NCBI GenBank assembly: GCA_963745235.1
Contig: CAVUXE010000011.1
Span: 1 to 64,000 of the forward strand
Reading direction: 5' to 3'
Origin: an uncultured Spirochaetota bacterium
Lineage (GTDB): Bacteria > Spirochaetota > Spirochaetia > SZUA-6 > Fen-1364
DNA length: 64,000 nucleotides
Shown here piece after piece: positions 39,473-64,000 of this stretch. The notes under the pieces were generated by a model. It had not been told where the DNA came from. It made no database searches and was given only the letters and a program-made list of their open reading frames with translations. Positions within the stretch are counted from its first letter, which is position 1, and each line of letters starts with the position of its first letter. Made by a program: the position numbers and the translations under genes.

Positions 39473-39491
39473 GAACCCCAGGGAGGTGTTC

Positions 39492-40358: not shown

Positions 40359-40416
40359 ATGATTTAGGAATTTAGGCCGCTCCTCGAAGGGTAGGGCCTA
40401 TCTAAGTAAGCTATCC

Positions 40417-40677: not shown

Positions 40678-40761
40678 GGAAGTGCAAACCGCGGATGTGC
40701 GGGCAGCCGCTGGTTACTACGAAAGGCGTTGTGTGATGGAGATGATGGAGAGGAGGCTATC

Positions 40762-46863: not shown

Positions 46864-48434
46864 CGCATTGCCTCATCAGAATTCTAACCCAACGAGCTGA
46901 TTTGCCTCATCGAAAAATCTAACCCTAAAAAATCCCCTCCGCGACCTGACATGATGGCGCCGCGGGAGGAAAAGGGTGGGATTAACGATGAGGGAGAAGA
47001 AATCCATTACTCGCGTGACGGCTCGCAGATACCGGAATGCGAACAAGAAAGCCAAGCAGAAAATCCTGGACGAGCTTACTCGAACGACTGGCTACAACCG
47101 CAAGTATGCCATCCACATGCTTACCAATTGGGGCAAAGAAAAGTTTCACAGGGTGGAGGGGAGGTCGATCAAGTTTACCGTCGGCCAGCCCACAAAGCGC
47201 AAGAAACGCCTCGGCAGGCGTATCTATGATGAGAGGGTCCGAGAGGCTGTTCGCAAGCTCTGGCAGTTGTTTGACTACATGTGTGGCAAGCGCCTGGCGG
47301 TCATCATACGGCTGAACATCGCGATGTTGCACCGGGAACCGGATCTGGGCATCGATGAGGCGGTGAAGCAGAAGCTCCTGAAGATCAGCCCTGCCACCAT
47401 CGACCGCATGCTGACCACAGAGCGCAAGAAACTGGTGATCAAGGGCCGCAGCCACACCCGTGGCGGCACGCTGCTCAAGCACCAGATTCCCATCCGCACC
47501 TTCTATGATTGGGATGAGCGCAAGCCGGGCTTTTTCGAAGCCGATACTGTGGCCCACGACGGGGGAAATAGTTCGGGGGAATGCTGCTTTACGCTGAACG
47601 CCACCGACGTTTTCTCTGGGTGGGTGGAGCTGCGCTCATTGCCCAATCGGGCGCACCGGTGGGTCAAAGACGAAGCGGAAGGGATTCGTGCACAGCTGCC
47701 TTTTGCGCTTAAAGGTTGGGATTCCGATAACGGAGGAGAGTTTATCAACCACCAGCTTTTGAACTGGGCCAACGAGCATCACATCAGCTTCACCCGTGCT
47801 CGCTCCTATCGCAAGAATGACAACTGTTTCGTCGAGCAGAAAAACGATCTGGCCGTTCGACGCACGGTGGGCTACTACCGCTTCGAGACGCAGGCCGAGT
47901 ATGAGGGGCTCAAAGAGGTGTACAAACACCTGTGCCCGCTGTTGAACTTTTATTACCCCTCGGTGAGAATCATCGAGAAGACTCGAATCGGGGCACGAGT
48001 GAAGAAGAAATACGATGCACCCAAACCGCCTTACCAGCGGATGTTGGAATCCCCCGATGTTGAGGAGGAGGTGAAGAAAGAGCTCCGACGACGTGCCCAG
48101 AAGCTACACATCGTGAAGCAGAAACGTTTGGTGGATCAAGCTGTGGCGCGGTTGATGCGGATACACGATGAGAAAAACCAAGGGCACTTGTTGCTGGAGT
48201 AGGGCTCGCCGGGCACGTGCATCGACCAGACGGCCGCGTGTGATCGAAAACGTACGTCGTGGCGGGCCAAGGGCGCATTTCCCGAGGCGAGGTGGTATCC
48301 AGGTACCCCTCGAAATGGCTGGACTTCGCGGGCAAGACGCACTTTTGAGTGGGGCCTCGGAGCCAGCTCCAGGGTTAGAATTTTGGATGAGGCATTCAAA
48401 GAACTACGGTTAGAATTTTTGGTGAGGCAATACG
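46864..48434 (+). mobile_element. ISNCY-type IS with doubled terminal repeats
   Basis: Each end carries two ~23-bp TTGCCTCA...TCTAACC units, inverted between ends; flanks are GAGCA / GAGCG. Confidence 0.8.
46976..48202 (+). CDS. Integrase-core (rve) DDE transposase
   Basis: PGFFEADTVAH, DSDNGGEF and KNDNCFVEQKN motifs. Confidence 0.9.
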   Translation: MGLTMREKKSITRVTARRYRNANKKAKQKILDELTRTTGYNRKYAIHMLTNWGKEKFHRVEGRSIKFTVGQPTKRKKRLGRRIYDERVREAVRKLWQLFDYMCGKRLAVIIRLNIAMLHREPDLGIDEAVKQKLLKISPATIDRMLTTERKKLVIKGRSHTRGGTLLKHQIPIRTFYDWDERKPGFFEADTVAHDGGNSSGECCFTLNATDVFSGWVELRSLPNRAHRWVKDEAEGIRAQLPFALKGWDSDNGGEFINHQLLNWANEHHISFTRARSYRKNDNCFVEQKNDLAVRRTVGYYRFETQAEYEGLKEVYKHLCPLLNFYYPSVRIIEKTRIGARVKKKYDAPKPPYQRMLESPDVEEEVKKELRRRAQKLHIVKQKRLVDQAVARLMRIHDEKNQGHLLLE

Positions 48435-49003: not shown

Positions 49004-49696
49004 TCATCCTCCCGGCTGCAGCGACTTCACCCACTTCACGGTGCTGCCGATATCCTCGCTATTGAACAGGAGGGAGCCCATGACGATGAGTTGGGCTCCG
49101 GCCGCGCGCAAGCCTGGCACAGTACTGGCCCTGATGCCGCCATCTGACTCCACGCGCACGGTCCGTTCTAAGCCGTGCTCTTTGACGAGGGCGCGGACCG
49201 CGCGAACCCGGGGAGCGGCAAGGGGGGAAAGGTTCTTTCCCTTCACTCCCATCGGAGTGCCCATGAGAACCACGATGTTGATGGACGGCAAGCTCGGAAC
49301 GAGGGACTCCAACGGCACGTCCAGACCCAGAGCCAATCCGGCAGCCAGCTCGCGGCGTGCCGTTCGCTCCAGAGCAGCCGGGACACGCGAGCCGTTTTCG
49401 CAGTGGACCGTTATCATGTCCGCGCCCGCGTCAGCAAAGTCGTCGACCAGAGACAACGGGTTCTCCGTCATAAGGTGGACATGGAACGGTTTCTTCGTGA
49501 GAGGCCGCAGCGCGGCAACCAGATCGGGGAAGAACACGAGGCCCGGGACGAAATGCGCGTCACAGACGTCGACATGGTAAAGATCCACATGGGCATCCAC
49601 ACGCTCGATTTCTGCACCCAGCCGGGTGAAGTCCGCTGACCACAGCGACGCTTCGGCTAGGAGGTCATTGCCAGGGAACCGGTTCCAGAAATCCAT
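49004..49696 (-). CDS. rpe: Ribulose-phosphate 3-epimerase family protein
   Basis: HVDVCDAHFVP, HVHLM, SDGGI and VMGS motifs. Confidence 0.88.
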   Translation of the reverse strand: MDFWNRFPGNDLLAEASLWSADFTRLGAEIERVDAHVDLYHVDVCDAHFVPGLVFFPDLVAALRPLTKKPFHVHLMTENPLSLVDDFADAGADMITVHCENGSRVPAALERTARRELAAGLALGLDVPLESLVPSLPSINIVVLMGTPMGVKGKNLSPLAAPRVRAVRALVKEHGLERTVRVESDGGIRASTVPGLRAAGAQLIVMGSLLFNSEDIGSTVKWVKSLQPGG

Positions 49697-49705: not shown

Positions 49706-50117
49706 CTATGACTCCCTGACCAGGTACTTCTTCGGGAACTCGGCGCCCACGACGTACTTGAACAGGGGGTCGCGGATCATCTGGTAGACGTTCACGCGAA
49801 AGCTCGGGTTCACGGTGAGCAGGAGGTAGGCGTCGGTTGGCGTTATGCCGTACTCATTCACCATCCACCTCCATGCGGTAGGTGATATGGAAAGAAAATT
49901 CTATACGCTCGCATCGATGGATTAACGCGACAATTCAAGGTGCCCTCCGTCTTGACCTCATCCTCCGTAGGGAGATCCTTTTCGGACTCGATCTTTCCCC
50001 CCCCGTGTTGTCCCGGGTCTCCACCATGAACTCCTCTTCCTGGCCGACCCTGACAACGGGCGGTTTCGTCCAGTCGAACGTGTAGCTGAGCCGAGCTTCC
50101 CATGAGATTCGCTTCAT
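49706..50117 (-). pseudogene. Acetamidase/formamidase family gene, internally deleted
   Basis: N-terminal YTFDWTKPPVVRV...FMVETRD lies close to C-terminal WMVNEYGITPTDAYLLL...VVGAEFPKKYL. Confidence 0.65.
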
Positions 50118-50508
50118 CTGATCGCCTCCACGCTGATTATTCTATAGGTAATCCGGGCCTTGTCAAAGCGCGGTTACTGCTGGGCTTCGGATGTCAGCGA
50201 CAGGCAGCAGGATCTCGAACTCGCAGCCTGATGGCGAACGGTTCTTTGCCTTTGTTGACGATGCCTATCTCACCTAGAGTCAAAGAACTGATCTCCTGCC
50301 TCGAAGCGTTTGGGAAAGCGTGCGCTGCGGGGATATCCGAGGCGCGGCAACTGCGTAGATCTCGCCGGCGTGTTTTCCGAAATTCATGATCAGTTCGCTC
50401 TTGCTTTCGAGCGGTTAATGGCTCAGACGATTCGGTCTTTGCTATTACGGCTGCTGCGGAGCCGCTCACTTGACAGATGTCGTTCGCCGTGAGAGTATGT
50501 GGTTGTTA

Positions 50509-50528
50509 AACTATGTAATTACATAGTT
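50509..50528. promoter_or_regulatory. Perfect 20-bp palindromic operator, likely bound by the GntR/HutC regulator
   Basis: AACTATGTAATTACATAGTT, downstream of TTGACA (50470) and upstream of the GntR operon. Confidence 0.65.
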
Positions 50529-50573
50529 ACATTATGGTAACCCGATAATCGGGGAAGGAGTACTCGCGGAAAC

Positions 50574-50819
50574 ATGGCGCTCGGCATGGAGCTCGATACC
50601 ATTACGGCTGTTGTTTTGGGAGGCACAAGCATTGGGGGAGGCAGGGGGACGATCGCCGGCACGGTCATTTCGGTGCTCATGATAGGACTTTTAAGGAACG
50701 GCATGTACGCGAAGAATATTTCGCCGGAAATCATGAAGATAGTCATAGGAGGACTTCTCATTGTGAGTCTTCTTGTGCCACGGGTCCTTGGTGGTGTAGG
50801 GAAAGCTGAGGGAAAATGA
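50574..50819 (+). pseudogene. C-terminal fragment of a sugar ABC permease
   Basis: GMELDTITAVVLGGTSIGGGRGTI; only 81 aa. Confidence 0.75.
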
Positions 50820-51580
50820 AGGAAGAACTGTTTGTCCAGGTGGACAAGAACCGGGCAATCCCATTTTACTACCAAGTGAGCGAGTTTATCCAAGAACTCG
50901 TTCGGAAGGGCGATATCCAACCGGGCGAGCAAATGCTCCCCGAGGAAGTGCTCGCCGAGCGGTTCGGTGTTAGTAGACCGACGATCAACAAGGCAATAGC
51001 GATCCTTGTTCGTAAATCAGTGCTTTCGAGAGAACGAGGGAGGGGCACCTTCGTGTATTCGGGAGAGGTACGGCTCACACTCATGCAGGAACTAGCGAGC
51101 CTTCACGAGGCGATGCAGAAAAATAATATCAAATTTAGGACCGAAGTGCTGAAGCTGGAGCGGCTCAGGGCGGACAAGCAAATCGCCGGCCTGCTGGACT
51201 TGAAGGAAGGCGCCGCGGTCTTCTATCTGAAGCGTCTCCGCTACGTTGAGGACGAGCCGTTTCTCATTTCCAAATCCTATCTACCGTTCACCATTTTCCC
51301 GGGGTTTGAAGAGCACGACTTCATTACGAACTCACTCTATGCAGTTATAGAAAGCCAATACGAAATTCCTGTGATTAAGACTGAACGCTTTGCGCGGGCC
51401 GTCAAGGCCCTCGATGAGGAAGCGCATTTATTCAGGATACCGCTTGGTGATCCGTTGATCCAGCTCGAAGGAGTTGCGCTCACTTTGAAGGACCTAAAAG
51501 TCGAATACTTCAACACGAAGATCCGTGGAGACCGGGGTGTGCTAAGCACCACCTTGTTAAGGAAGCGGAGGCCAGCGTGA
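50816..51580 (+). CDS. GntR family regulator (HutC/UTRA)
   Basis: LPEEVLAERFGVSRPTINKA...RGRGTFV HTH plus a UTRA domain. Confidence 0.93.
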   Translation: MKEELFVQVDKNRAIPFYYQVSEFIQELVRKGDIQPGEQMLPEEVLAERFGVSRPTINKAIAILVRKSVLSRERGRGTFVYSGEVRLTLMQELASLHEAMQKNNIKFRTEVLKLERLRADKQIAGLLDLKEGAAVFYLKRLRYVEDEPFLISKSYLPFTIFPGFEEHDFITNSLYAVIESQYEIPVIKTERFARAVKALDEEAHLFRIPLGDPLIQLEGVALTLKDLKVEYFNTKIRGDRGVLSTTLLRKRRPA

Positions 51581-51602
51581 AAAGACCCAAGACAGGAGGG
51601 GG

Positions 51603-52794
51603 ATGTCAATGGGCGACCGAATTAGTGCGATCTATGAAATTACGCCGCAGGTAGAATCACCCGAAAGGGCGTTCGATCTCCTGCTCCACGAGATGACGAG
51701 CGGCATACAGTATTTCTCCGGCCCTGACGGGGCAATCATGGACAAAATTGTAAACCATGTCCCGTCAGTTGATCGCAGCGTTATGGGAGAAATCGTCGCG
51801 GCAGAGAAAGGAGAAGATAGCTCGTACCGCATCACTTTTTCAATTCCTGCTTCCAACCTCAACCCCGAGATGGGGGGAATAACCAATTTGTGGCCGATTG
51901 TTGCAGGAGAAGTCTTCAATTTCTACTTCATCAGGAAGGCGCGACTGCTGGACCTCAGCCTGCCCGGAATCCTTCCAAGCGCGCTACCTAGGGCCGCGCT
52001 GCGGCCTGCAGGGCATGCGGGAGTTGCTCCATGCCGGCCCTGACCCACTCTTTGGCGCGATAATAAAGCCCAACGTCGGGCTTAATCCTGCGCAAGCTGC
52101 AAAGCTTGTGCAAAGTCTGGCAGATGCAGGATTCGATTTCATCAAGGACGATGAGATTTGCGTGGACCCAGTGCTTTGCCCGCTCCGCGAAAGGGTTTCC
52201 CGCGTCGCCGAGGCGCTAGACGCCTCGGCTGGACGGTCCGGCCGCAAGCCGCTTTACATGTCAAACATCACTGTGGACTTCGCCTCCCTCCACGAAGCGG
52301 CGCGAATAGCAGCCGAGTGTGGTGCCGGGGGATTCATGGTGGATCCGTTCTGCACGGGGATGTCGACGATCGACTTTCTGCGGCGCACCTTCCCTCTGCC
52401 GATCTACTGCCACCGGGTCGGCTATGGGCTCCACAGTTTGGGCCAGACCTACAGCGTGAGCTTCGAGCTGTTCAGCAAACTCTTTAGGTTGTTGGGCGCA
52501 GACTTTTCGCACGTGGGGGGAATCTGGGGGAGCGGGGCAGATGCTAAAATGAAAACCGGACGATATCTGGAAATCCTCAGACGCCGTGTTGCTGGAGCTT
52601 TGGACAGGAATGAGACCTGGCCTGTGGTGAGCGGCATTAGCCTAGAGAATATGGAGGAGTATTATCGCTTCTACGGGGATGACACGCTGTTCCTTGAGCA
52701 TATCGATATCTACACCGACACAGATGCTGCGCGGCGCAAGATCGACGCTCTCAAGCAGCGTGTAGAGGCAGCAAAGACGGGAGCCGGGGCGTGA
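51603..52794 (+). CDS. RuBisCO-like protein (form IV), one frameshift near 51965
   Basis: HEMTSG, GPRCGLQGMRELL, GAIIKPNVGL, FDFIKDDE, IYCHR and PVVSG motifs. Confidence 0.88.
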
Positions 52795-53843
52795 ATGGAA
52801 AAATGAAAGCGGCGGTACTCCACGCTCCGGGGGACGTGCGGTTCGAAGAAGTACCAATCCCGGCGATCGGCCCCGAGGAAGTACTCCTGCGCATAAAAGC
52901 GGCGGGTAACTGCGGATCTGACCTGAAACGGATCATGGTGGAAGGCACTTGGGTGCTGCCATGCATCCCCGGCCATGAGTTTTCGGGAGAAATAGCCGAG
53001 GTAGGAGAAGGAGTGGAGGGGTGGAAGACCGGGGATCGAGTGACGGCCGCACCAATGCTCCCTTGCTTTCGGTGCGAGTGGTGTCTCCAGGGCCAGTACA
53101 ACCTGTGTGAGAATTATGACTACGTCGGTTCACGATCGGACGGAGCTTTCGCCGAGTACCTGAAGATTAGGGCCTTCAACCTTGTGAAGCTCCCCGATGG
53201 GGTGAGCGATGAGGCGGCTGCCATGACGGACCCGGCGGGCGTTGCGCTCCACGCTTTGCGGCGTGCGGGCGGTGTCAGCCCCGGGGAAACCGTCGCGGTG
53301 CTCGGTGCCGGACCGATCGGGATGTTCGCTTGCCAGTGGGCAGCGCTATTGGGCGCGGGGAAAGTAATCGCAACCGATATCCTCGATGAGAAGCTTGAGA
53401 TTGCCAGTGGTCTGGGTGTCCCGGTGAGGATCAATTCCAGGCGTGAAGACACGGTGGCCCGGATCATGGAAGAGACGGGCGGCAGGGGAGCTGATCTGCT
53501 TATAGAGACCGCGGGCTCAGTAGAGACCCACAGGCAGGCGCTGCTCGCGGCGCGCAAGCGTGGAAGAATTGTGCATATCGGCAGGGCGTATTCCGACGTG
53601 CTACTGACTGATGAGGTGTTCACGAAGATCTTCCGCCGGGAGCTCGCAGTATTTGGCGCCGTGAATACCAACTTCTCTCCTCACGACAATGAGTGGAAAA
53701 CCACGGTGGACTACATAGCATCCGGGAAAATCCGAGCCGAGCCGCTCGTCTCCCACCGCCTGACGATGAGCGCCGTAGGGGAAACCTTCCGCAAGATGTA
53801 CCGGCGGGAGATGGTTTACAATAAGATCATCTTCACTCCGTAA
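52791..53843 (+). CDS. Zn-dependent sugar-alcohol(-phosphate) dehydrogenase (GatD-like)
   Basis: CGSD, GHEFSG, CxxCxxC and GAGPIG motifs. Confidence 0.9.
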   Translation: MNGKMKAAVLHAPGDVRFEEVPIPAIGPEEVLLRIKAAGNCGSDLKRIMVEGTWVLPCIPGHEFSGEIAEVGEGVEGWKTGDRVTAAPMLPCFRCEWCLQGQYNLCENYDYVGSRSDGAFAEYLKIRAFNLVKLPDGVSDEAAAMTDPAGVALHALRRAGGVSPGETVAVLGAGPIGMFACQWAALLGAGKVIATDILDEKLEIASGLGVPVRINSRREDTVARIMEETGGRGADLLIETAGSVETHRQALLAARKRGRIVHIGRAYSDVLLTDEVFTKIFRRELAVFGAVNTNFSPHDNEWKTTVDYIASGKIRAEPLVSHRLTMSAVGETFRKMYRREMVYNKIIFTP

Positions 53844-53859
53844 CGTTGAGAGGTGAATC

Positions 53860-54913
53860 ATGGAGGCCGTGTATTTGAGAGGCGTCGAAGACGCTGTCGT
53901 GACGACCGTGCCTGATCCCTGCATTCCCGGCCAGGGAATTCTGGTTCGGGTGGAGGCGTGCGCCGTGTGCGGCACCGACGTTAAGATGTATCGCCACGGC
54001 TATGCCGCGGCGAAGTTTCCCCTCATTCCCGGACACGAGATCGCGGGTAAGATCGAGCGACTCGAAGGGAACTACCCTAGGACTCTCTGTCGGAATGCGC
54101 GTGGCCATTGCGCCGAACATTCCGTGCGGCGTGTGCCAGTATTGCAGGGACGGGCTCCAGACGGCCTGCGATTCCCTTGAGACGATCGGCGTGCACCGCG
54201 ACGGCGGTTTTGCCGAGCTCTTAGTCCTCCCCGCGCACGCGGTGACAGCAGGCTGCGTCTTTGCTATCCCAAAAGGGGTTGCAAGCGAGGAGGCGGCGCT
54301 TATCGACCCGGCCTCCTGCGCTGTGAATGCTTGCGAATTGTCCCACGTGAAGCCGGGCGATACTGTTGTTGTCGTTGGCGCTGGTCCCGCCGGATGCCTG
54401 TGCGTGGAGGTGAGCAAGGCCTTTGGTGCGCGCTTCACTATCCTTATCCAGCGCTCGTCTGCACGTCTTGAGCAGGCGCGTTTTACAGGCGCGGGACTTT
54501 TCATCGACTCCTCTCGCGAAGATGCGCTTGCGAAGGTTCGCGAAGCCACCGGGGGCAGGGGGGCTGACGTAGTGATCGTTGCTGCCGGCACGGCCGAAGC
54601 TCAAGAGCAGGCTATGCAGATGGTAGCCAAGAGAGGCAGTGTAAACCTCTTCGGCGGCCTACCCAAGTCGAGCCCGACTATCCGCCTTGATTCAAACCTC
54701 GTGCATTACAGGGAAGTTTCCGTCGTGGGCACCCATGGGAGCTCCAACAGGCACTGCGCAATCGCTCTGGACATGATCGCTGACAGGAGGATAAGGGCCA
54801 GCAACTACGTAAGCAGGCGGTTTGCCCTTAGCGAGTTTCCGTCAGCCCTTGCAGCTGCAGAGAGCAAGACGGGGCTGCGGATGTTCGTCAATCCTGGGCT
54901 GGCTGGTCGATGA
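53860..54913 (+). CDS. Zn-dependent alcohol dehydrogenase (sorbitol/iditol DH-like), one frameshift
   Basis: CGTD, GHE, CGVCQYC and GAGPAG motifs across two ORFs. Confidence 0.85.
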
Positions 54914-55010
54914 GAGTAATCCTGGTCCGCTGCGGCGAGATGGGCCTGAGGAGAGAGGGATTGGGCAAAAAGAAGTCTGCCGGACTTGACGACGAAAGGC
55001 GGCTTAGGGA

Positions 55011-55976
55011 ATGACCGAAATAACCTTAGGAATCAATACCTGCTTCGCGATCGGCCGCTACCCAGAACCGGAAGAATGGATGCGTGTCGTCACGGACGAG
55101 CTGGGGCTCTCTCACGTCCAGTTCTCGTTCGACTTGGTTGACCCTGTCATCGTCGACTGGGATACCGTTGAAAGAAAATGTAGGAAAATTGCTGAGCTTG
55201 CTCAGCAGAGAGGGATTCGCATAGACACGGCCACCACGGGCGAGGTCCCCCATAAATCTAATGCTCTCCTCGATCCTGATCTTGCAGTCAGGCGCTCCTA
55301 CCTCCGCTGGTACGAAAACCTCATACGGGCAAGCAGCATCCTGGGCGCCGAAGGCTCTGGGGTCTATCTCGGAACCCTGAGCAGCAGGGACAACGGGTCC
55401 GCCGAGCGGCGCGCGTACCTCATCTCCGTTCTCATGGAGGAGATCGAGCACCTCACGGGAATAGCGAAGAGCGAGGGTCAAAAATATTTCATGTGGGAGC
55501 CGATGTCTGTCCCCCGGGAGATCCCCTGCACCATTAGCGAAACGCGAGAGCTCCTCGAGCGGGCAAACCGCAATTCGCAGATACCAGTGTTGCTCTGTTT
55601 GGACGTTGGCCACGGTTGGATCCGTTCCCCTAATCCGAGCGATCGAGACCCGTACGAATGGCTTCGAGAGCTTGCGCACTTGTCTCCCTCTATCCACATG
55701 CAGCAGACCGACGGTAAAGGTAGCCGGCACTGGCCGTTTTCTCCCGAGTTCAACGCTAAAGGTATCATCGCTCCTGAAAAGGTGTTCGCCGCTCTGGAAC
55801 TATCTGGCGCGGAGCGAACGATTATTGTCTTTGAGTACTTCTTCTCTGCGCATGCACTCAGCGAAGACACGGCGATAGCCGACATGCGCACAAGCGTTCA
55901 GTACTGGAAGGAAGCTCTTGGCGGTTCTCATCGCGCAGGTAGAGCGGGGAGGGAAGGGCGGCCGGCAGCGAGGTGA
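55011..55976 (+). CDS. TIM-barrel epimerase (D-erythrulose-1-phosphate 3-epimerase/EryC-like)
   Basis: LGINTCFAIGRYPEPEEW, VQFSFDLVDP, WEPMSVPRE, DVGHG and HMQQTDG...HWPF motifs. Confidence 0.7.
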   Translation: MTEITLGINTCFAIGRYPEPEEWMRVVTDELGLSHVQFSFDLVDPVIVDWDTVERKCRKIAELAQQRGIRIDTATTGEVPHKSNALLDPDLAVRRSYLRWYENLIRASSILGAEGSGVYLGTLSSRDNGSAERRAYLISVLMEEIEHLTGIAKSEGQKYFMWEPMSVPREIPCTISETRELLERANRNSQIPVLLCLDVGHGWIRSPNPSDRDPYEWLRELAHLSPSIHMQQTDGKGSRHWPFSPEFNAKGIIAPEKVFAALELSGAERTIIVFEYFFSAHALSEDTAIADMRTSVQYWKEALGGSHRAGRAGREGRPAAR

Positions 55977-55983
55977 GACCGCA

Positions 55984-57492
55984 ATGAGCCTGATGGGAAT
56001 TGACGTGGGAACCACTGGTTGCAAGGGCGTGGCTTTTGATGAGAGGGGGACAGTTCTTGCATCGGCGTACAGAGAATACCCACTTATCCAGCCCAAGGAA
56101 GATTGGGTAGAGCTTGACCCGCAACTTATTTGGCAGTTGTTAAAAGAGACTCTACGAGAGGTGAACGCGCAGCTTTCCGCGGACCCGGTGCAAGCAATCG
56201 GTGTCTCCTCTCAGGGGGAGACTGTCACAGCGCTTGACGATCGGGGAAACAATCTCTGCAATTTCATCGTCACTTTCGACAATCGGACTATTGAGCAGGT
56301 CTCGTTCTGGGAGAAAGCACTCGGCCGCGACGCAGTCTACCGGATAACCGGGATGCCCCTTCATCCCATGTACTCGATCAACAAAATTCTTTGGATAAAA
56401 AAAAATCTTCCCGACGTTTTTGCGCGAGCGCGCAAGTTCACCCTCGTCGAGGACTTCGTCATTTCGCGGCTTTGCGGAGAGTACGGGATCGATTTCTCCC
56501 TTGCCGCGCGAAGCATGGCTTTTGATGTCACGCAGGCAAAGTGGTCTGCGGAGATTCTCGCTGCCGCCGGGGTGGAAGAGCGCTTCCTCTCCCGCGCGGT
56601 GCCGTCGGGTACAATCATCGGATGCATGCGCCGTGAGCTCAAGGACGAGCTTGGCTTCAAGCGGGAGGTTTCCATTGTCACCGGGGGGCATGATCAGCCC
56701 TGCGGTGCCCTCGGAGCCGGCATCACGGGGGCAGGGATCGCGATGAATGCAACGGGTACAGTTGATGCTATCTGTCCCGTGTTCAGCGACTTACAGTTTT
56801 CCCCTCAGATGCTTCAAGACAACTATGCGGTCTACCCTTACACGATGCAGGGACTGTATTGCACCATCGGTTTTAACCTTACCGGCGGCCTACTCTTGAA
56901 GTGGTACCGGGATACTCTTTGCGCCGAAGAAGTCCGTTGGGCTAAGAACAAAGGCATGGGCTCGTATGATATGATCCTTTCTCGCATGTCGAGTTCCCCA
57001 AAGGATATCTATGTACTGCCTCATTTTGTTGGGTCGGGCACCCCGCAGCTTGACCCTCTTTCAAAAGGGGCAATCATCGGGTTACGGATCTCCACTACCA
57101 AGGAGGATTTGACGCGAAGTATCATAGACAGCATCAACCTTGAGATGAAAATAAACATCGAGCGAATGCGGGCGAACGCAATCCCTATACGCGCCATCCA
57201 CGCGGTCGGAGGCGGCGCCAAATCAGACCTCTGGCTTGCACTTAAGGCGAGCTGTTTTGGGGTGCCTGTCAGCCGACCCAGGACCGAGGAGGCGGTTTCC
57301 CTTGGCGGGGCTATCCTTGCAGGATATGCCACCGGGCGCTTTCAGGGTGTTGCCGAGGGGGCGAAGGCAATGGTTGCCATCCAGGATACATTCGAGCCGC
57401 AGGAAAAGCTCGTAGCTTTGTATGATGAGAAGTTCGCTAAGTTCCGGGAGCTTTATCCAACGCTCTCGCAGCTCAATAGGAGTTTGGAATGA
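55984..57492 (+). CDS. FGGY family carbohydrate kinase
   Basis: GIDVGTTGCK, SSQGE, GGHDQ and VGGGAKSDLW motifs. Confidence 0.92.
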   Translation: MSLMGIDVGTTGCKGVAFDERGTVLASAYREYPLIQPKEDWVELDPQLIWQLLKETLREVNAQLSADPVQAIGVSSQGETVTALDDRGNNLCNFIVTFDNRTIEQVSFWEKALGRDAVYRITGMPLHPMYSINKILWIKKNLPDVFARARKFTLVEDFVISRLCGEYGIDFSLAARSMAFDVTQAKWSAEILAAAGVEERFLSRAVPSGTIIGCMRRELKDELGFKREVSIVTGGHDQPCGALGAGITGAGIAMNATGTVDAICPVFSDLQFSPQMLQDNYAVYPYTMQGLYCTIGFNLTGGLLLKWYRDTLCAEEVRWAKNKGMGSYDMILSRMSSSPKDIYVLPHFVGSGTPQLDPLSKGAIIGLRISTTKEDLTRSIIDSINLEMKINIERMRANAIPIRAIHAVGGGAKSDLWLALKASCFGVPVSRPRTEEAVSLGGAILAGYATGRFQGVAEGAKAMVAIQDTFEPQEKLVALYDEKFAKFRELYPTLSQLNRSLE

Positions 57493-58225
57493 GGAAGCCG
57501 TCCTTCATCGGACCCATGCACAGAAGATTCCGCAGACAAATCCGCGACTTGGCGGCGGCGAGCGTTCGTCTTGGGGAGCTGGGTTTCGCGTCCTCCCGCG
57601 GGGGCAACCTTTCCTGTCGTGCGGATGATGGCTGTTTGCTGATTACCCCGACCGGCTTTCGGAAGAAGGAAGTCCGCCCAGAGGACATACTGGTGGTGAG
57701 GCCCGACGGAAGCACGTGGGAAGCACGCCCGGGGCTTAAGCCTTCAAGCGAGGCGCCTGCCCATATGCACATAATGCGTTCCCGTCCGGATGTTCAAGCG
57801 ATTATCCATGCTCATCCACCGGTTTTAACGGGTTTCGCCCTCGCGGGGGTCGATATTCTCTAAAACCCATCCATCCTGAGCTTGTCATCGAGGTCGGCCC
57901 CGTGATCAACCTTGACTACACCGAACCAACGTCGGAGAAGCTTGCACACCAGTTCGATAGTGTCATACTCAGCGCCAACGCCTTCCTGATGGGAGGGCAC
58001 GGGGTTATGATCTGCAGCCCGGTTGGAATCGAAAGGGCACTGGAACTCCTGGAAATGCTTGAGACGATAGCATTTTCGGCATGGGTCGCGATGTCCGTGG
58101 GAAAGCCGAAAACGATTCCCGCCGCTGAGCTAGACGCGTTGGAGCGCATCATGCGCACGCGCAACCTTACTATGCCGGGCGCGTCGGCCGGCTGGAGCCT
58201 GCGGAAGCTGTACGGGACGAACTGA
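57489..58225 (+). CDS. Class II aldolase/adducin family protein, one frameshift
   Basis: GGNLS, ITPTG, PSSE, IIHAHP and MGGHG motifs. Confidence 0.85.
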
Positions 58226-58416
58226 ACCGGAGAAGAGGGGAATGAATTTGCTTTGATTAAGGATGACCTGTAAAATGCGAATGGAGAAAAGGTGAGGAAA
58301 AGAGTGATTCGACCAGGCAAGGTTCAAGCGCAGTATTGAGACCATCTTTTGGAATTGTTTAGGTGCGAGTCGTGCGATTAGTGGGGCATTAATACAACGA
58401 ACAAGGGAGGAAAAAG

Positions 58417-59415
58417 ATGAGACCTATCAGATTCGCGTCGGGGCTCCATGTCTTTGGAAGTACTGCAGACCGCTATGTCCTCAGCGGTTATAAGCCGCAG
58501 GTACCAATATCTGAAATGATTCAAGGGGCGGCAAAGGTGAAGGGCTTAAAAGGCGTCGAACTTGTCGAGACGTGGCATATCAATAGCGAAAACGTAGACA
58601 AGGTGCTGTCAGAGCTGCAGGCGTCCGGATTACAACTTACCCTCCTCATGCCCGATCTCTGGGCTTCTGGCAAATGGGGAATGGGAAGCTTTGCTGCAGG
58701 GAACGAGAAGACACGCAGGGATGCTATTGAAACGGTCAAACGCACGATGGACATGGCGGCACGCACAGGCTGTAATTTGATCAATGTGTGGTTGGGGCAG
58801 GATGGTTACGATTATCCGCTCCAAGCCGACTATTTGAAGGCGTGGGACTGGATCGTTGAAGCCTTAAGAGAATGCGCTGATCATAATCCCAAAGTCACAA
58901 TCGGGATGGAGTATAAAATCAAAGAGCCGAGAACCCATTGTTTTATCGGAACAATCGGTAAGCTGCTCTTGCTGATGGACAAGGTGAATCGGAAGAACCT
59001 GGGCGTCATTCTAGACATAGGACATGCTCTCGAGGGATATGAAAACATGGCGGAATCCGCCGCGTTGTGCAAGTATTTTGGCGACCGGCTTATCCATCTC
59101 CATCTCAACGACAACTGGCGATCCTGGGACGATGATATGATGGTGGGGTCCATCCACACAATCGAGCTTTTGGAACTCCTGTACTGGCTAGAAAAAATCG
59201 ACTTCCGGGGGTGGTACTCGCTGGACATCTTCCCCTACAGAGATGATTCAATCGCCGTAGCCTCAGAGAGCCTGAACTGGATAACGGATCTGCGCAGGGT
59301 GATCGATCACATTGGATTGGACAGAATCGAGAAAGTCATCGCAAGTGGCGACGCTGCCCAGGCATCCCGCTTGGTGAGAGAGGGCATGTTCTCTGTGTCG
59401 GAGCATAAGAAATGA
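58417..59415 (+). CDS. Xylose-isomerase-like TIM-barrel isomerase (D-apiose isomerase-related)
   Basis: WLGQDGYDYP, MEYKIKEPR, LDIGH, HLNDNWRSWDDD and LDIFPYR motifs. Confidence 0.8.
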   Translation: MRPIRFASGLHVFGSTADRYVLSGYKPQVPISEMIQGAAKVKGLKGVELVETWHINSENVDKVLSELQASGLQLTLLMPDLWASGKWGMGSFAAGNEKTRRDAIETVKRTMDMAARTGCNLINVWLGQDGYDYPLQADYLKAWDWIVEALRECADHNPKVTIGMEYKIKEPRTHCFIGTIGKLLLLMDKVNRKNLGVILDIGHALEGYENMAESAALCKYFGDRLIHLHLNDNWRSWDDDMMVGSIHTIELLELLYWLEKIDFRGWYSLDIFPYRDDSIAVASESLNWITDLRRVIDHIGLDRIEKVIASGDAAQASRLVREGMFSVSEHKK

Positions 59416-59643
59416 ACTGTACGCTTGGAAGAAATCGGTCCAAAGCGGGAAGGAGGGATCACCGGTTTTTACCAGGGTGACTTTAGAAAGGGGCTGTGTG
59501 AAAGAGCAGAAAGGAGGGCAATAGTAAGACCATGAGGGTCGCGCTGAAGCGTTACATAAGCGTGACAAGGATTCCAATCACTCGGTTGGTTTGCGGCTGC
59601 ATCCGCCGACACTGAGTGCAAGCAAGAACGAGGAGGACGATCG

Positions 59644-60690
59644 ATGGGTAGGATGGTAAGAACGATCCTTCTGGCAGGACTCGTGCTTCTAATTGCATGT
59701 GGGGGTGTGTTTGCCAGCGGGAAGGGAGAAGCGACTAAGACAGCGGCAATCACTATCGGGTACTGCTCGCCAGAACTTGACGCCTTCCAAGCAGGGGTCA
59801 TGTACAGTGTGATGCACTACGCCCAGGCAAAGGGCTGGGCGGTGATTCCGGAAGACGCCAACACAGATCCGCACCTACAGGCGAACCAAGTAGAATACCT
59901 GATTTCCCTGGGTGTGAAGGCGATCGTGGCGGTGCCGTGCGATAGCCAGGCATTCTGCGCTTCAATTGCAAAGGCTCGCCAGGCGAACATACCGGTGTAT
60001 ACGATCGACCGCGCTCCGATTGGGTGCAAGGTCAATATGGTCGTCCAAGCCGATAACGAGAAAGGCGGCACTGACTCCGGGACCGAGATCGTGAAGTTCC
60101 TGACGCAAAAATACGGAAGCCCGAAGGGCACTGTGTTGGAGCTGCAGGGAGAGATGGCCGAGAACGTGGCGCAGCTCAGGCACAAAGGCTTTATCGATGT
60201 CATGAACCAATATCCCGACATTAAGGTCACTTCAAAGACAACCCACTGGGACTCCAACCAGTTCTATCAGGACGCCATGGATGTGGTCGGCTCCCAAGCT
60301 ATTGATGCGATCTTTCTGCACTCCGACACCGTAGGCGGCACGCCGGTAACGCAGGCCCTCACCCAGCTCGGCAAGTTGGTTCCCGCGGGCCAGCCCGGGC
60401 ATATCTACATAGCTGCGATCGACGGGTCGCCGAATGGCCTTGACCTCATCCGCAAGGGTTCTCTCGACCAGACCTCCAGCCAGCCAAATCCCGATTTCGG
60501 CATTCTCACCGAATATATCGACAAAGAGTTCAAAGGCGAGAAGATCGTGGCGGGTCCAGTAGTGAAGGAGGGAGCCCTGTGGTCGCCCGCGAAGATCATT
60601 GACTCCGACGTTGGGCCAATGCTCGAGCTGGCCACAACGGACGTCACGAAGGCCAATGTCGATGACAAGCGCCTTTGGGGGAACCACTAG
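59644..60690 (+). CDS. Sugar ABC substrate-binding protein
   Basis: Signal peptide ending VFASGKGE; IPVYTIDR, ADNEKGG and IDGSP motifs. Confidence 0.9.
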   Translation: MGRMVRTILLAGLVLLIACGGVFASGKGEATKTAAITIGYCSPELDAFQAGVMYSVMHYAQAKGWAVIPEDANTDPHLQANQVEYLISLGVKAIVAVPCDSQAFCASIAKARQANIPVYTIDRAPIGCKVNMVVQADNEKGGTDSGTEIVKFLTQKYGSPKGTVLELQGEMAENVAQLRHKGFIDVMNQYPDIKVTSKTTHWDSNQFYQDAMDVVGSQAIDAIFLHSDTVGGTPVTQALTQLGKLVPAGQPGHIYIAAIDGSPNGLDLIRKGSLDQTSSQPNPDFGILTEYIDKEFKGEKIVAGPVVKEGALWSPAKIIDSDVGPMLELATTDVTKANVDDKRLWGNH

Positions 60691-60810
60691 AAGCCGGTAA
60701 ATCGGCAACATGCCGGGGGCGAGCTGCGATAATCTCTCAGCCCGCCCAGCTTTATGAGATTTGAAGTCCTGCTTCTGTGGTTAATCGGACATGAGGAGGA
60801 TCGGCAAGCC

Positions 60811-61953
60811 ATGGAAAGAGATCGTACAACATCCTTTTTTGTTGCAATCATAGACAACCTCATTTGGGTTATCGTTATTGTCGCTTTCGTTGTTTTCTCC
60901 CTGCTGTCCAGTCGGTTTCTTCACTCTTTTCAACCTGGTGAATATCCTGCCGAGGGTGGCTGCGCTTGGTCTCCTGGTCATCGGCCAGTCCTTTACAATG
61001 ACAACCGCGCACTTCGACCTCTCTTCCGAATCGACCCTCGGCTTAACCGCAATGGTGGGGGCGCTGTTTGTCGCCACCACAAACTACGGCGGGCTTGGGA
61101 TAATGATGCCCCCCGGTTTCGCCATCGTCTTGATGATTCTACTCGGGTTGCTCATCGGAACCTTAAACGGCTTCATGATTACGAAACTGAGAATGAACAA
61201 TCTCGTAGCGACGATCGCCATGCTGATCCTCCTCCGCGGCGTTGTGTGGATCCTTTCCCCAGGAAAGAGCGTGAGCTTTCTCGGGCCCGTGTTCGACTGG
61301 ATCGGGGGAGGAGTTCTTTTCACGATTCGGGCAGGCGGCAAGCCTACCGGTGTGCCGGTAAGCTTCTTTTTCGTGCTGGTGGCTTTTGCTTTCGCGCACA
61401 TCGTGACCCGATACACCCGATTCGGCCGGCACATGTACGCTATCGGCTCCAACCGTGAAGCCGCGGAGGCCGCGGGCATCCGGACCCAGCGGGTCATTTT
61501 CTCGGTATATGTGATTAGCGGCGCTTGCGCTGGCGATTGCGGGTCTACTTGAAGCCGGGCAGAGGAGACTCTGTCGTAGGCGGGCTCGGCCAAGGTTGGA
61601 TTTTTCAGGTACAGGCGGCGGCCATCATCGGAGGGATCAGTCTGTTCGGCGGCAGGGGGAGCATGCTGGGTGCGCTCGGCGGCGTCCTTTTCTGGGGCAT
61701 TCTGGAGTCCGGTTTGAGCATCATGCAGGCCAGTCCTTACTCTATCAACGTATTCCGAGGCGGCTTCTGCTTCGTCGCTATGATGCTCGATGCTTTGAAG
61801 ACCCAATACCTCCGCACTCTTTCAGCGCACCAGGTTGTTCGCCCGATCGACGATCGGAATAGCGGATTTGAACAACCTGGGGTAGGCGAGAAAAGAGAGA
61901 AATCCTTATGGAAACCACAGTGCCAGCAACAATTGTCTCACTGCGCGGCGTGA
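60811..61953 (+). CDS. Sugar ABC permease (several frameshifts; 3' end approximate)
   Basis: HFDLS, FGRHMYAIGSNREAAEAAGI and IGGISLFGGRG motifs. Confidence 0.8.
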
Positions 61954-63440
61954 GCAAGTCCTTTCCAGGCGTAAATGCCCTATCGAATGTGGACCTCGAC
62001 GTCCACCAGGGCGAGGTGCATGGTCTCGTAGGAAAAAACGGGGCCGGCAAATCGACACTCGTTCGTGTGCTCATGGGACTGCACGAGCCGGACAGCGGCT
62101 CCTTGGAGATAAATGGCCACCGCTTCTCTCGCATCACCGCCAGTGAAGCTTTGGCCGCAGGAGTCGCGTACGTTCCCCAGCACGTCAGCATGATGGACAG
62201 TCTTGTCGGTGGCCGAGAACATTCTTGCGGGAGAGATGCCAGTCGGTGCTTTCAGGTTGGTAGAACTGGAAGAAGGTGTATGCTCAGGCAGCGGACAGAC
62301 TCGAAAAGCTCGGCCTGGACCTGGACGTTCGAAAGAATGTTGAAGGGATTAGCGTCGCCGAGCAAACGATGCTTGCAATAGCGCAGGCGCTCTTCCGCCG
62401 GGCGAAACTCATCATTTTGGATGAGCCGACCGCTTCGCTTCCTCGGGCTGACATCGACCGTCTGTTCACTCTCATCCGTTCGCTCAAGAGCCAGGGAGTT
62501 GCAATTGTATTCATTTCGCACCATTTGGAAGAGGTTTTCGAGATCTGCGACCGGGTGACCGTGCTTCGCGACGGCTAGCCAGATCGGAACCTGGCCTCTC
62601 TGCGGAGCTGGACCTGCAACGCTGACAAAGGTAATCGTGGGAGAGAATATCCATGAGTATGTAAGAGAGTCAAGGGAAAGAGCGCCGGAAATCTCGCCAT
62701 GCAGATCAGTGGATTGACACTTAGGGGGTCACTACGAGGACATCTCGCATGGATATCGCCAAAGGCGAGGTTGTCAGCGTTTGTGGGCTGCAGGGCTCGG
62801 GAGCCGAGGCGTTGGGCGAGAGGCTCTTTGGTCTGGAGCCGAGGGGGATCGGAGCGTGTCCGAGTAGACGGCAAGGAGTACACGGCAAGGAATCCCAAGG
62901 AGGCCTTTGCCCAGGGAGTCGCCTTGCTCCCGCAGGATCGGTACCGCTTCGGGATTGTCGGCTCTGCGGCCAATCCGGGAGAACATCACTTATTCCATTC
63001 TGGACCAGCTGACAGGATTTCTCTCTATCCTTAAATCGGTCAAGGAGCGTCAGTTGGTGAAAGATTTCATCGAGAAGCTAGGTATCGTCACTCCAAGCCA
63101 GAACCAAAGCGTAAGGCTCCTGAGCGGCGGGAACCAGCAAAAAGTGGTTTTTGCCAAACTTGCCTGTACAAGACCAAGCGTGCTTATTCTCCACGATCCC
63201 ACTCAGGGCATCGACGTGCGCGCCAAGCTGGACATCTATAGGGTGATCGACGACCTAAGTGCGCAGGGCATTGCGATTCTTATCATTTCGACTGAGGTGC
63301 GCGAGCTTGTCGGGGTGTGCGACCGGATCCTCGTCATGTACGAGGGTCGTATAACCCACGAGTTCAAGAGGGGGGACGCCGATACGACACCGAGCAACAT
63401 TTTGCTGGCAATTGAGGGAGGCCGTCATGCGGGACAGTAG
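61908..63440 (+). CDS. Sugar ABC ATP-binding protein (several frameshifts)
   Basis: GKNGAGKST, LDEPT, LSGGNQQK and HDPTQGID motifs in successive ORFs. Confidence 0.85.
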
Positions 63441-64000
63441 GGTCGATTGGGTGAAGCTTATCCTAGACCGATTCCTTTGGTTGGTGATTGTGCTAATCGC
63501 CCTCTTTTTTGTGTGGCGAGCTCCCGGCTTTGCTACCGGAGTGAAACTTCGTCAACCTTCTCCTTCATGCCAGCGTGCTAGGGCTCCTTGTCATCGGACA
63601 AAGCATCTGCCTGCTCAGCGGTAATTTCGACCTCTCCATCGAAGGCAACATTCAACTGGTTGCCGTACTCGCAGGGTGGATGATGGTCCCTGCCGTAGGG
63701 TTCGAGGGCGGGGGCGGCTGGGTGCTCTCACCCTTTATGGTCATTCCAATAGTGCTCGTGATGGGCGGGGCTGATCGGAATGCTCAATGGCCTGATGATC
63801 ACGCGGCTGGGGATGAACAACTTCATTGTGACTCTGCGCAATGCAGCTGGTTCTCGGAGGGATTGCTTTCCTCATTAGTCGAGGGTTTGACATTAACCGC
63901 ATTCCTGCTTCCTTCTCGTGGCTAGGCAGCCACGCTTTCGGTCACATCCCAGTCCAGATAATCTTTACCGCTGTGGCCTTCATCGGGTTCCAGCTTTTCC
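63427..64000 (+). CDS. Sugar ABC permease (frameshifted, runs off the window)
   Basis: LGLLVIGQSICLLSGNFDLSIEG. Confidence 0.75.

Follow-up and report, generated by a model that had tools for sequence, protein, structure and literature searches.

The D-apiose/D-apionate pathways are among the described systems closest to the locus reported here, which lies at positions 50816–64000 of the 64,000-nucleotide stretch analysed (the window) from an uncultured Spirochaetota bacterium. In these pathways, as in our locus, a form IV RuBisCO-like protein (RLP), there the decarboxylase OiaC or the transcarboxylase/hydrolase OiaX, is encoded in a sugar catabolic cluster together with a ribose-type ABC transporter, and the RLP follows a kinase reaction and an oxidation, as it would in the route that we propose. 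The active-site motif IIKPN is also common to our RLP and the OiaX-like 3nwr group. However, the RLP of our locus forms a separate deep clade, scores 134.5 bits against the OiaX model (cut-off 700) and has lost the C-terminal phosphate-binding GGG motif. The partners differ as well, being ApnO, a DUF1537 kinase and a lactonase in the OiaC/OiaX pathways and two Zn-MDR dehydrogenases with an FGGY or UPF0261 kinase in our module.

Bacillus-type methionine salvage (MtnK, MtnA, MtnB, MtnW, MtnX) shares with the proposed route the logic of a kinase, a keto- or diketo-1-phosphate, enolisation by an RLP and a phosphatase, and a class II aldolase-family protein is encoded nearby in our locus too. Yet no MtnA, MtnK or MtnD genes were seen in the locus, the RLP reaches only 103–118 bits with the MtnW models (cut-offs 409–514), the places of the isomerase and dehydratase are taken by dehydrogenases, and the setting is one of sugar import and repression.

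The Brucella erythritol pathway (EryA, EryB, EryC) has in common with the proposed route the order of FGGY kinase, polyol phosphate oxidation and EryC-like TIM-barrel epimerase. EryC is a tetrulose-4-phosphate racemase, and its structure (PDB 4k3z) is the best solved relative of our TIM barrel 1 (146 bits, E 1.3e-41). Unlike our locus, the Brucella pathway has no RLP and uses a GlpD-like flavoenzyme (EryB) in place of Zn-MDR dehydrogenation, while EryH-/EryI-type isomerases were not seen in our locus. The E. coli galactitol pathway (GatD and the class II aldolase GatY) is related through our first dehydrogenase (ZnDH1), whose nearest solved relative is GatD (PDB 4a2c, 219.6 bits), and through FBA-II-type aldolases, which adjoin the module in two other loci (L004 and L019). 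In contrast, our locus has no PTS and contains an RLP and a second dehydrogenase; ZnDH1 scores 264.7 bits against the galactitol-1-phosphate 5-dehydrogenase model PRK10309 (cut-off 550) and is therefore not a GatD equivalog. Finally, the D-hamamelose pathway includes an RLP oxygenase (listed in PMC10176493). This pathway resembles the route that we propose as a branched or rare sugar pathway in which an RLP acts on a dehydrogenase-made keto-polyol phosphate, and differs in its use of O2.

Gene content of the locus

All of the gene types listed in the sequence-only reading were recovered, as twelve genes on the plus strand. The first (50816–51580) encodes a GntR/HutC-type regulator with a UTRA effector domain (PF00392, 55.8 bits; PF07702, 107.1 bits) and precedes the frameshifted gene for the RLP (51603–52794), whose RuBisCO_large match (PF00016) reaches 112 bits (cut-off 30.1). 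Two Zn-MDR dehydrogenases come next: the intact, GatD-like ZnDH1 (52791–53843; ADH_N and ADH_zinc_N) and the Tdh/IolM-like ZnDH2 (53860–54913), frameshifted near 54075–54078, whose orthologue in a related species (L002) matches PDB 4ej6 at 141 bits. The EryC-like, xylose-isomerase-like TIM barrel 1 (55011–55976; PF01261, 46.9 bits) matched no NCBIfam family and is a candidate ketose-phosphate epimerase/racemase. It is followed by a xylulokinase-like FGGY carbohydrate kinase (55984–57492; FGGY_N 228 bits, FGGY_C 115 bits), which stays under the equivalog cut-off of the XylB model TIGR01312 (311.4 bits versus 380.25).

Further downstream, a class II aldolase/adducin-family protein (57489–58225; PF00596, 95.3 bits) is frameshifted near 57863–57869; the top NCBIfam match of the aldolase-family piece is to MtnB models, at 63–64 bits and far under the cut-off, and its L002 orthologue matches PDB 6voq and 6btd at 60–63 bits. 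The xylose-isomerase-like TIM barrel 2 (58417–59415; PF01261, 111 bits), a candidate aldose-ketose isomerase, has 3ktc as its best solved relative (189 bits). The transporter consists of a CUT2 (ribose-type) periplasmic sugar-binding protein (59644–60690; PF13407, 138.9 bits), matching PDB 2ioy and 4y9t at 88–92 bits, and an ABC permease, ATPase and second permease (60811–64000), where PF02653 and PF00005 were found on pieces broken by at least eight frameshifts and the second permease continues past the window end.

Searching the gene pieces of 50816–64000 against Pfam (E ≤ 0.001) returned no families beyond those named above. Since no enzyme of the locus reaches a curated NCBIfam equivalog cut-off, all activities are assigned at family level only. 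Four-base overlaps occur at three junctions (50816/50819, 52791/52794 and 57489/57492), the ZnDH1 start overlapping the RLP stop and the aldolase-family start overlapping the kinase stop, and the earlier remark that several genes are translationally coupled therefore holds. Transposase and integrase genes lie nearby, at 31267–32910 and 46976–48202.

The RLP clade and its conserved neighbours

A protein search with the RLP returned 88 clusters at about 48–96% identity, after which matches fall to 37%; a search of 1.84 billion representatives gave a single full-length 50% representative and one sister at 38%. The tree recovers the RLP and its close relatives as a monophyletic clade (SH-aLRT 99) that has a long stem and falls outside the OiaX-like, MtnW-like and form-III-like groups. 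NCBIfam scores of the RLP span 103–148 bits against cut-offs of 409–700; the OiaX score is no better than those of the MtnW models or of the form III and general RuBisCO models (136–148 bits, cut-offs 438–497), and its 90 nearest neighbours all stay below the equivalog cut-offs. The RLP belongs to a tight, isolated and previously undescribed form IV clade. The sequence-only reading had not recognised this gene combination as a described pathway, and we likewise found no published description of the neighbourhood, no characterised family that takes in the RLP, and homologues that keep its gene context. Clade members come almost only from Spirochaetota MAGs and from peat, soil and sediment metagenomes. 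The host spirochaete is from a peat or soil setting.

The predicted structure of the RLP has a RuBisCO large-subunit fold (pLDDT 88.6) and matches both RLPs and form III enzymes with TM values of about 0.8–0.86. All 34 clade members compared keep the same residue at each position aligned with K175, K201, D203, E204, H294, R295 and H327 (RuBisCO numbering). The K177, N123, H298, T65/W66 and G403/G404 positions have become N, E, Y, I/Q and E-H, those at K177, N123, H298 and G403/G404 being replaced throughout the clade, and the K334 position is S in our RLP and S or G across its subgroup. The carbamyl-Lys/Asp/Glu metal site is kept, and several carboxylase residues are missing.

Gene neighbourhoods were counted over 33 non-redundant groups. 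ZnDH1 comes after the RLP in every one of 28 groups, and ZnDH2 is present in 21 of 22 (L006/L017 is the group without it). An FGGY or UPF0261 kinase, the latter from a family shown to be kinases (PMC12624787), is found nearby in 8/11 wide-flank groups, and no kinase was found near the RLP in the other three (L005, L006/L017, L050). A histidine phosphatase comes after the dehydrogenases in 9/16 groups, and EryC-like TIM barrel 1 occurs in 7 of the 12 with at least 4 kb downstream. The recurring core is the RLP and two dehydrogenases, joined by the kinase and often by the phosphatase and the EryC-like barrel. No histidine phosphatase was found in the window's operon, and a truncated copy (54% identical) lies 7 kb upstream. 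A GntR orthologue stands upstream of the RLP in L002, L004, L014, L019, L035/36, L043 and L048, and two unrelated aldolase families adjoin the kinase in different lineages. The whole 13-kb stretch did not prove to be a single conserved operon: besides the window, just 1/33 groups, namely L002, combines the RLP with TIM barrel 2, the class II aldolase and the ABC transporter, and the L002 copy of TIM barrel 2 is 94% identical to ours.

A possible pathway and its alternatives

We lean slightly towards an uncharacterised pathway of phosphorylated polyols or ketoses, where the RLP would enolise a keto-phosphate supplied by the kinase and the dehydrogenases. From the gene content, we infer the following chemical steps and their order. 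A polyol or ketose, our guess being a C4–C6 polyol or rare ketose, would be phosphorylated by the kinase, of the FGGY type in our locus and of the UPF0261 type in other lineages. Next, the two dehydrogenases, GatD-like and Tdh-like, would oxidise, or oxidise and re-reduce, the phospho-intermediate to a keto- or diketo-phosphate, from which the RLP could form an enediolate at its kept metal site and tautomerise, isomerise or cleave it without CO2 fixation. The EryC-like barrel may then epimerise the resulting ketose phosphate, and an aldolase, class II in our locus and of FBA-II type elsewhere, or the histidine phosphatase would lead on to central metabolism. Against this explanation stand the family-level assignments and the gaps in the neighbourhood noted above (no kinase nearby in three wide-flank groups, no ZnDH2 in one group, no histidine phosphatase in the window's operon). 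In addition, making a diketone by two sequential NAD-dependent oxidations would place a heavy energetic demand on a fermenter, and the frequent phosphatase could equally mean biosynthesis.

The latter possibility amounts to a module making a modified sugar or polyol through phosphorylation, redox, RLP, epimerase and a final phosphatase. The phosphatase is indeed often the last gene, DegT aminotransferases occur in the L033 and L047 contexts, and a formyltransferase-like gene in those of L003, L024–L028 and L038. However, solute-binding proteins and ABC importers adjoin the module in the window, L002, L006, L019, L033 and L040, and in the window's genus it also occurs with GntR/UTRA repressors and aldolases, which makes a biosynthetic role improbable. 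The importer and repressor also fit nutrient catabolism better than a salvage of methionine or deoxy-sugar type, with a kinase, an MtnB-like dehydratase/aldolase, the RLP as a 2,3-diketo-1-phosphate enolase and a phosphatase in the role of MtnX. Two vicinal oxidations could give a diketo-phosphate, the substrate class of the one known RLP enolase, and both the MtnB matches and the phosphatase agree with such a route; yet the MtnW scores are low, the clade lies outside the MtnW-like group, an aldolase-family gene accompanies the RLP in one other group only, and MtnA-, MtnK- and MtnD-type genes were not seen. We give salvage a low probability.

We consider quite improbable a D-apiose/D-apionate-type route, in which the RLP would be an OiaC/OiaX-like decarboxylase or transcarboxylase/hydrolase of a 3-oxo-acid-phosphate and TIM barrel 2 an apiose isomerase. 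It would account for OiaX being among the best NCBIfam matches of the RLP and for the IIKPN motif; the apiose kinase AplK is an FGGY enzyme too, apiose clusters occur with ribose-type ABC transporters, and an oxidoreductase pair has been proposed to stand in for apiose isomerase in E. coli (PMC13001218). Those oxidoreductases, however, are SDRs rather than Zn-MDRs, the window's operon showed no transketolase pair, the OiaX score is far under its cut-off, and the clade branches outside the OiaX-like group. With E. coli AplK the kinase shares 21% identity, and the binding protein shares 27% with its counterpart in the E. coli apiose cluster; nothing specific to apiose or to another branched sugar, as had been suggested for the substrate, was found. 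A true form III-like RuBisCO, fixing CO2 or salvaging nucleotides, is extremely unlikely: form III and general RuBisCO models and form III structures are among the top matches, but the scores are far under the cut-offs, carboxylase residues are replaced as described above, and no phosphoribulokinase, AMP phosphorylase or R15P isomerase family was found by Pfam in the gene pieces of 50816–64000.

State of the reading frames

The sequence-only reading named a frameshift in the RLP gene only. It is present, since one extra C at 51963–51965 (+1) causes the gene to be read in two frames, but 6/12 genes are in fact broken in the assembly, by at least 11 frameshifts in 13 kb. Frame changes in the ABC genes were mapped against the L002 orthologues. 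Short-read contigs could be compared up to 54950. One from run X4, otherwise identical to the window, has one base fewer at 54075, while those from X2 and X3 have one base fewer at 51963 and one at 54078; the RLP break is thus covered only by strains about 95% identical, and the ZnDH2 break also by an identical contig. Because the extra base is missing from short-read contigs at both covered breaks, the frameshifts seem to be errors in the consensus of a contig that was polished poorly, and for these two an error is the likely origin.

A decaying, pseudogenised locus, with real frameshifts and an operon that is non-functional in this organism, would agree with the density of breaks, with the transposase and integrase genes nearby and with an accessory trait present in 2/20 other genomes of the genus. 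We nevertheless find decay unlikely. Neither covered frameshift appears in the short-read contigs, and poor ORF integrity spans the contig (long-ORF coverage of 0.56, versus about 0.85–0.9 on large contigs) and is worse outside the locus. The balance tips modestly towards a functional accessory sugar or polyol locus, built on a core of kinase, two Zn-MDR dehydrogenases and the new-clade RLP, in which the frameshifts would mostly be assembly errors. In line with this, the locus of L014, at 95.7% DNA identity to the window, differs from it by only two indels, both in the length of C runs, and an RLP orthologue 96% identical to ours (P0001) is intact at 394 aa.

A separate form IV clade

The RuBisCO-like protein (RLP) at 51603–52794 (+ strand) matched the RuBisCO_large domain PF00016 at 112 bits (cut-off 30.1), and an AF2 model made from 34 members of its clade (pLDDT 88.6) retrieved RLPs and form III RuBisCOs in Foldseek (3nwr, 1tel and 2d69; E about 1e-31, TM 0.78–0.86). 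In residue numbers that we take to be those of spinach RuBisCO, positions K175, K201, D203, E204, H294, R295 and H327 are invariant in the clade alignments. Alignment A2 against form-III-like sequences shows carboxylase residues replaced: K177 by N, N123 by E and H298 by Y. Across the clade, T65/W66 are replaced by I/Q, after which 10 residues are inserted, E-H-I stands in place of the GGG phosphate-binding motif (G403/G404), and the K334 position is K, S or G (S in the window's RLP). The C-terminus is short. The metal site and the enolisation machinery are thus retained, and the carboxylase-specific residues and the second phosphate site are lost. Since it has the large-subunit domain and fold and is missing the carboxylase residues, the window's RLP is a form IV protein; judging from its residues, its substrate is most likely a monophosphate. 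A true RuBisCO is a less likely reading, because the RLP has an incomplete set of the catalytic and phosphate-binding residues of carboxylating forms I–III and stays below the corresponding NCBIfam cut-offs.

Within form IV, the protein stands apart. P0001, an intact 394-aa orthologue 96% identical to the window's RLP over the aligned part, scored about equally on the form III, OiaX and MtnW models, and below the cut-off of each: 147.5 bits for PRK04208 (cut-off 438), 136 for TIGR03326 (497) and 90.8 for PRK13475 (489) among the models of carboxylating RuBisCO (forms I–III), 134.5 for OiaX NF042437 (700), and 103.3 for TIGR03332 (513.6) and 118 for PRK09549 (409) among the MtnW models. A word-index search gave 88 clusters at about 48–96% identity, nearly all metagenomic, the next one standing at 37%. 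An exhaustive search of 1.84 billion representatives returned the full-length 50% representative P0084 and its sister P0121 (38%), and nothing above 180 bits beyond these two. None of the 90 nearest full-length neighbours reached an equivalog cut-off, and two passed that of the general RuBisCO subfamily. A tree of 101 rows showed the eight representatives of the clade as one monophyletic group (SH-aLRT 99) at the end of a long stem, and P0121 was sister to them (99). They fell outside the form-III-like group and outside the group (91) joining MtnW-like and OiaX-like sequences (27 members in the latter); these labels follow the best NCBIfam model, and OiaC, R. rubrum-type and Chlorobium-type RLPs are absent by name. 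An ESM Atlas look-up of P0001 gave generic RuBisCO-family clusters only.

The locus and its conserved core

All gene types named in the sequence-only reading are present on the + strand at 50816–64000. A GntR/UTRA regulator (50816–51580) precedes the RLP, which is followed by two Zn-dependent MDR dehydrogenases (52791–53843 and 53860–54913), a xylose-isomerase-like TIM barrel (TIM barrel 1; 55011–55976), an FGGY kinase (55984–57492), a class II aldolase-family protein (57489–58225), a further barrel (TIM barrel 2; 58417–59415), a ribose-type binding protein (59644–60690) and then a permease, an ATPase and a second permease, the last gene leaving the window's end. Three gene junctions have 4-base overlaps. 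Promoter and terminator scans of 50000–64000 yielded 10 (6.0 +/- 2.6 in shuffles) and 16 (12.6 +/- 4.1) predictions, respectively, which is no better than the shuffles, so operon boundaries cannot be drawn.

None of the enzymes of the locus reached a curated NCBIfam equivalog cut-off. Dehydrogenase 1, with its catalytic C/H/E and structural 4-Cys motifs both visible in translation, came nearest to GatD, both as a model (PRK10309, 264.7 bits, below the cut-off of 550) and as a solved structure (4a2c, 219.6 bits). The closest structures to dehydrogenase 2, taken from its orthologue in L002 (a locus in a related MAG of the window's genus), were 4ej6 and threonine dehydrogenases. The kinase scored 311.4 bits on XylB TIGR01312, below the cut-off of 380.25. 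The aldolase piece gave at most 64 bits on MtnB and other class II models, whose cut-offs are far higher; the closest structures, taken from its L002 orthologue, were 6voq and 6btd at about 60 bits. TIM barrel 1, which adjoins the kinase, matched no NCBIfam model and resembled Brucella EryC (4k3z, 146 bits over residues 4–301); no homologues of GlpD-like EryB, EryH or EryI were seen in the Pfam scan of the window's gene pieces. TIM barrel 2 was closest to 3ktc, deposited as 'xylose isomerase' (189 bits), with only weak NCBIfam matches to XylA, RhaI and IolO.

We annotated 50 RLP loci, 5 from genomes and 45 from metagenomes; L020 was dropped, as no RLP ORF was called there, and the other 49 formed 33 groups at 95% RLP identity. 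Dehydrogenase 1 lies directly downstream of the RLP in all 28 groups with a downstream flank of at least 900 bases, and dehydrogenase 2 is present in 21 of the 22 with at least 2 kb. A kinase was found in 8 of 11 groups with wide flanks, the EryC-like barrel in 7 of 12 with enough flank and a histidine-phosphatase-superfamily gene in 9 of 16. TIM barrel 2, the class II aldolase and the window-type ABC transporter accompany the RLP only in the L002 group; co-occurrence of the aldolase and the binding protein was scored by tblastn, as antisense ORFs hid both in the L002 ORF calls. The unit of interest therefore shrinks from the 13-kb stretch to the RLP, two dehydrogenases and a kinase. The suggestion that this RLP context is undescribed stands: the protein belongs to no characterised family, its neighbourhood is kept among homologues, and our literature search found no paper on the clade or the gene combination. 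RLPs in sugar catabolism are of an already known kind; the present clade and gene context are new.

The kinase itself varies: FGGY in three of the eight kinase-bearing groups and UPF0261 in five, the latter being a family shown in 2025 to be ATP-dependent kinases (PMC12624787). Non-orthologous kinases seem to have replaced one another around a core of RLP and two dehydrogenases that stays constant, and the RLP loci offer a second biological context for this newly recognised kinase family. In UPF0261-type loci, a PEP-hydrolase-like TIM barrel usually lies immediately upstream; a protein with a formyltransferase N domain is often found upstream too, as is another TIM barrel. In seven of them (L003, L024, L026, L027, L028, L030 and L038), the operon opens with the PEP-hydrolase-like barrel and the UPF0261 kinase, which correspond to the two halves of plant Tm-1-like proteins. 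Most of the seven, excepting L030, carry a Formyl_trans_N-domain protein of roughly 305 aa immediately upstream, and L027, L030 and L038 an additional AP_endonuc_2 barrel upstream of the RLP. In FGGY-type loci, which come from the window's genus and from some metagenome contigs, the RLP stands after a GntR regulator, and an aldolase adjoins the kinase, of class II in the window and L002 and of FBA-II type in L004 and L019.

Among GTDB species genomes, 5 of 12 confirmed loci, all in Spirochaetota MAGs, encode the clade; the other seven are relatives at 26–32% identity. Of 400 other genomes sampled evenly across the phylum, 10 contained the clade, all of them in one family (10 of its 17 genomes), which differs from the window's own. 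Within the window's genus, 2 of 20 other genomes carry it, one with two copies; 4 other genomes of the window's family and 16 of the order yielded none. Such an occurrence pattern points to an accessory, patchy trait. The sequencing runs that contain near-identical DNA carry peat- and soil-metagenome labels, and none of those listed is an RNA run. The clade would also be a marker of accessory carbon use among uncultured spirochaetes that live in peat, soil and sediments. The RLP and dehydrogenase 1 unit occurs twice (L002 and L006) in one MAG of the window's genus (G402); the second copy, L006, is without dehydrogenase 2, and the CUT2 ABC transporter that precedes it is a different one.

Possible chemistry and its alternatives

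According to a 2023 review, only a handful of RLPs have been characterised; all of these enolise a phosphorylated carbonyl compound related to RuBP, with proton abstraction, isomerisation, decarboxylation or oxygenation as the outcome (PMC10176493). From the genes, synteny and residue pattern observed here, in particular the retained metal site, the constant pairing with a kinase and two dehydrogenases of polyol(-phosphate) type, and the EryC-like epimerase, we infer the whole of the following chemistry. A polyol or ketose would be phosphorylated, and oxidation, with or without a subsequent re-reduction, would turn it into a keto- or diketo-phosphate, which the RLP would convert through an enediolate; its product would be epimerised and finally cleaved by an aldolase or dephosphorylated. 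The resemblances to GatD, XylB and EryC lead us to guess at a C4–C6 polyol or rare ketose as a candidate substrate. It is tempting to suppose, with a little less than even confidence, that the RLP catalyses a reaction new to its superfamily, such as tautomerisation or hydrolytic C–C cleavage of a keto- or diketo-polyol phosphate made by the dehydrogenases. If so, peat and sediment spirochaetes would possess a new anaerobic route for polyols or rare sugars with swappable parts: the kinase could be FGGY or UPF0261, and the last step could fall to either of two aldolase families or to a phosphatase. To our knowledge, every new RLP function so far has revealed an unexpected pathway and informed the evolution of RuBisCO chemistry. 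With two dehydrogenases and a kinase as conserved partners, the substrate can be built enzymatically and the reaction assigned, which makes the function of the clade directly testable in vitro.

The branched-sugar idea put forward earlier found no specific support. A D-apiose/apionate-type route, with the RLP as an OiaX/OiaC-like enzyme, appears very improbable to us: the FGGY kinase shares only 21% identity with E. coli AplK and the window's binding protein only 27% with that of the E. coli apiose cluster, and the RLP lies outside the OiaX-like group and below the OiaX equivalog cut-off. The gene context of that route comprises an ApnO oxidoisomerase, a DUF1537-type kinase and a lactonase or apiose dehydrogenase; the Pfam scans of the window's pieces and of selected neighbours in related loci, in which ApnO-like, DUF1537 and lactonase families were not queried by name, gave the reported families only. 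In E. coli, two oxidoreductases have been proposed to substitute for apiose isomerase (PMC13001218). That pair consists of SDRs, whereas the window's consists of Zn-dependent MDR enzymes; still, a dehydrogenase pair replacing an isomerase is a useful parallel. A scheme of enolase and phosphatase as in methionine salvage would account for the phosphatase and the MtnB-like match, but every other Mtn gene is missing, the aldolase-family gene is not conserved with the RLP, and the clade stays below the MtnW cut-offs and outside the MtnW-like group in the tree, which leaves this scheme unlikely. We also consider a biosynthetic module less likely than the catabolic sequence proposed here.

Contig quality and the surrounding sugar island

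Against the intact L002 orthologues, the reading frame changes once in each of the genes for the RLP, dehydrogenase 2 and the aldolase, at least twice in that for the first permease, and three times each in those for the ATPase and the second permease, which makes at least 11 changes in 13 kb. Long ORFs cover 0.56 of the window's contig (C11, 108.7 kb), about 0.85–0.9 of the large contigs of the same genome and a median of 0.77 in the genome; ORF integrity is worse in the window's first half than at 50816–64000. A metagenome contig, L014 (95.7% identity over 2241 bases), differs from the window by only two indels, each an extra C within a C-run of the window; the RLP frameshift is one of the two. 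In the public short-read run X4, a contig otherwise identical to the window is without one base at 54075, the dehydrogenase-2 break, and in X2 and X3, which represent a strain of about 95% identity, contigs have one base fewer at 51963 and one fewer at 54078. The identical-strain contigs (X1 and X4) do not span the RLP break at 51963, and the read comparison reaches 54950. Overall, the poor ORF coverage, the L014 indels, the short-read contigs and the intact P0001 make consensus errors the best explanation of the frameshifts, and a decaying locus is less likely. Quality is uneven across contigs of the window's genome (C63, C65, C19, C92, C30, C103, C11 and others; long-ORF coverage 0.15–0.9), and broken genes on its poor contigs should not be taken as pseudogenes without read support.

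Taken together, the 33–64 kb region forms an island of sugar-utilisation genes. At 33138–41247 (+), a fucose-isomerase-N-domain ORF, another xylose-isomerase-like TIM barrel and an HbpS-like protein come after a second CUT2 ABC system, whose genes run in the order permease, ATPase, permease and binding protein. An inositol-monophosphatase-family gene (42855–43724, +) is coupled to a His_Phos_1 gene (43721–44248, +), 54% identical over 136 residues to the phosphatase inside the L002 RLP operon and apparently cut short or shifted in frame from about residue 136 on; a rearrangement may have moved the operon's own phosphatase to this place. ORFs with DDE transposase and rve-integrase domains at 31267–32910 and 46976–48202 (+) lie between sugar clusters and could explain the mosaic arrangement. 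Within the RLP locus, the isomerase and ABC block (58417–64000) is 85–99% identical to L002 at the protein level, and the block from the regulator and RLP to the aldolase (50816–58225) only 62–84%; the two blocks hence seem to have different histories, which suggests that they were recombined or acquired separately.

Just upstream, a ribulose-phosphate 3-epimerase family gene occupies the opposite strand (49004–49696, −). At 50541–50819 (+), only the C-terminal 80–90 residues of a BPD_transp_2 permease are readable, and their end overlaps the GntR start by 4 bases; no further part of the gene is evident upstream, and this could be a remnant or a heavily frameshifted gene. Directly downstream of the L002 RLP operon (17280–20664 of that locus) comes a rare-sugar (allose/psicose-type) set of three genes, for an L-rhamnose isomerase and a D-psicose 3-epimerase, which score 540 and 410 bits, respectively, each above its own cut-off, and for a PfkB kinase.
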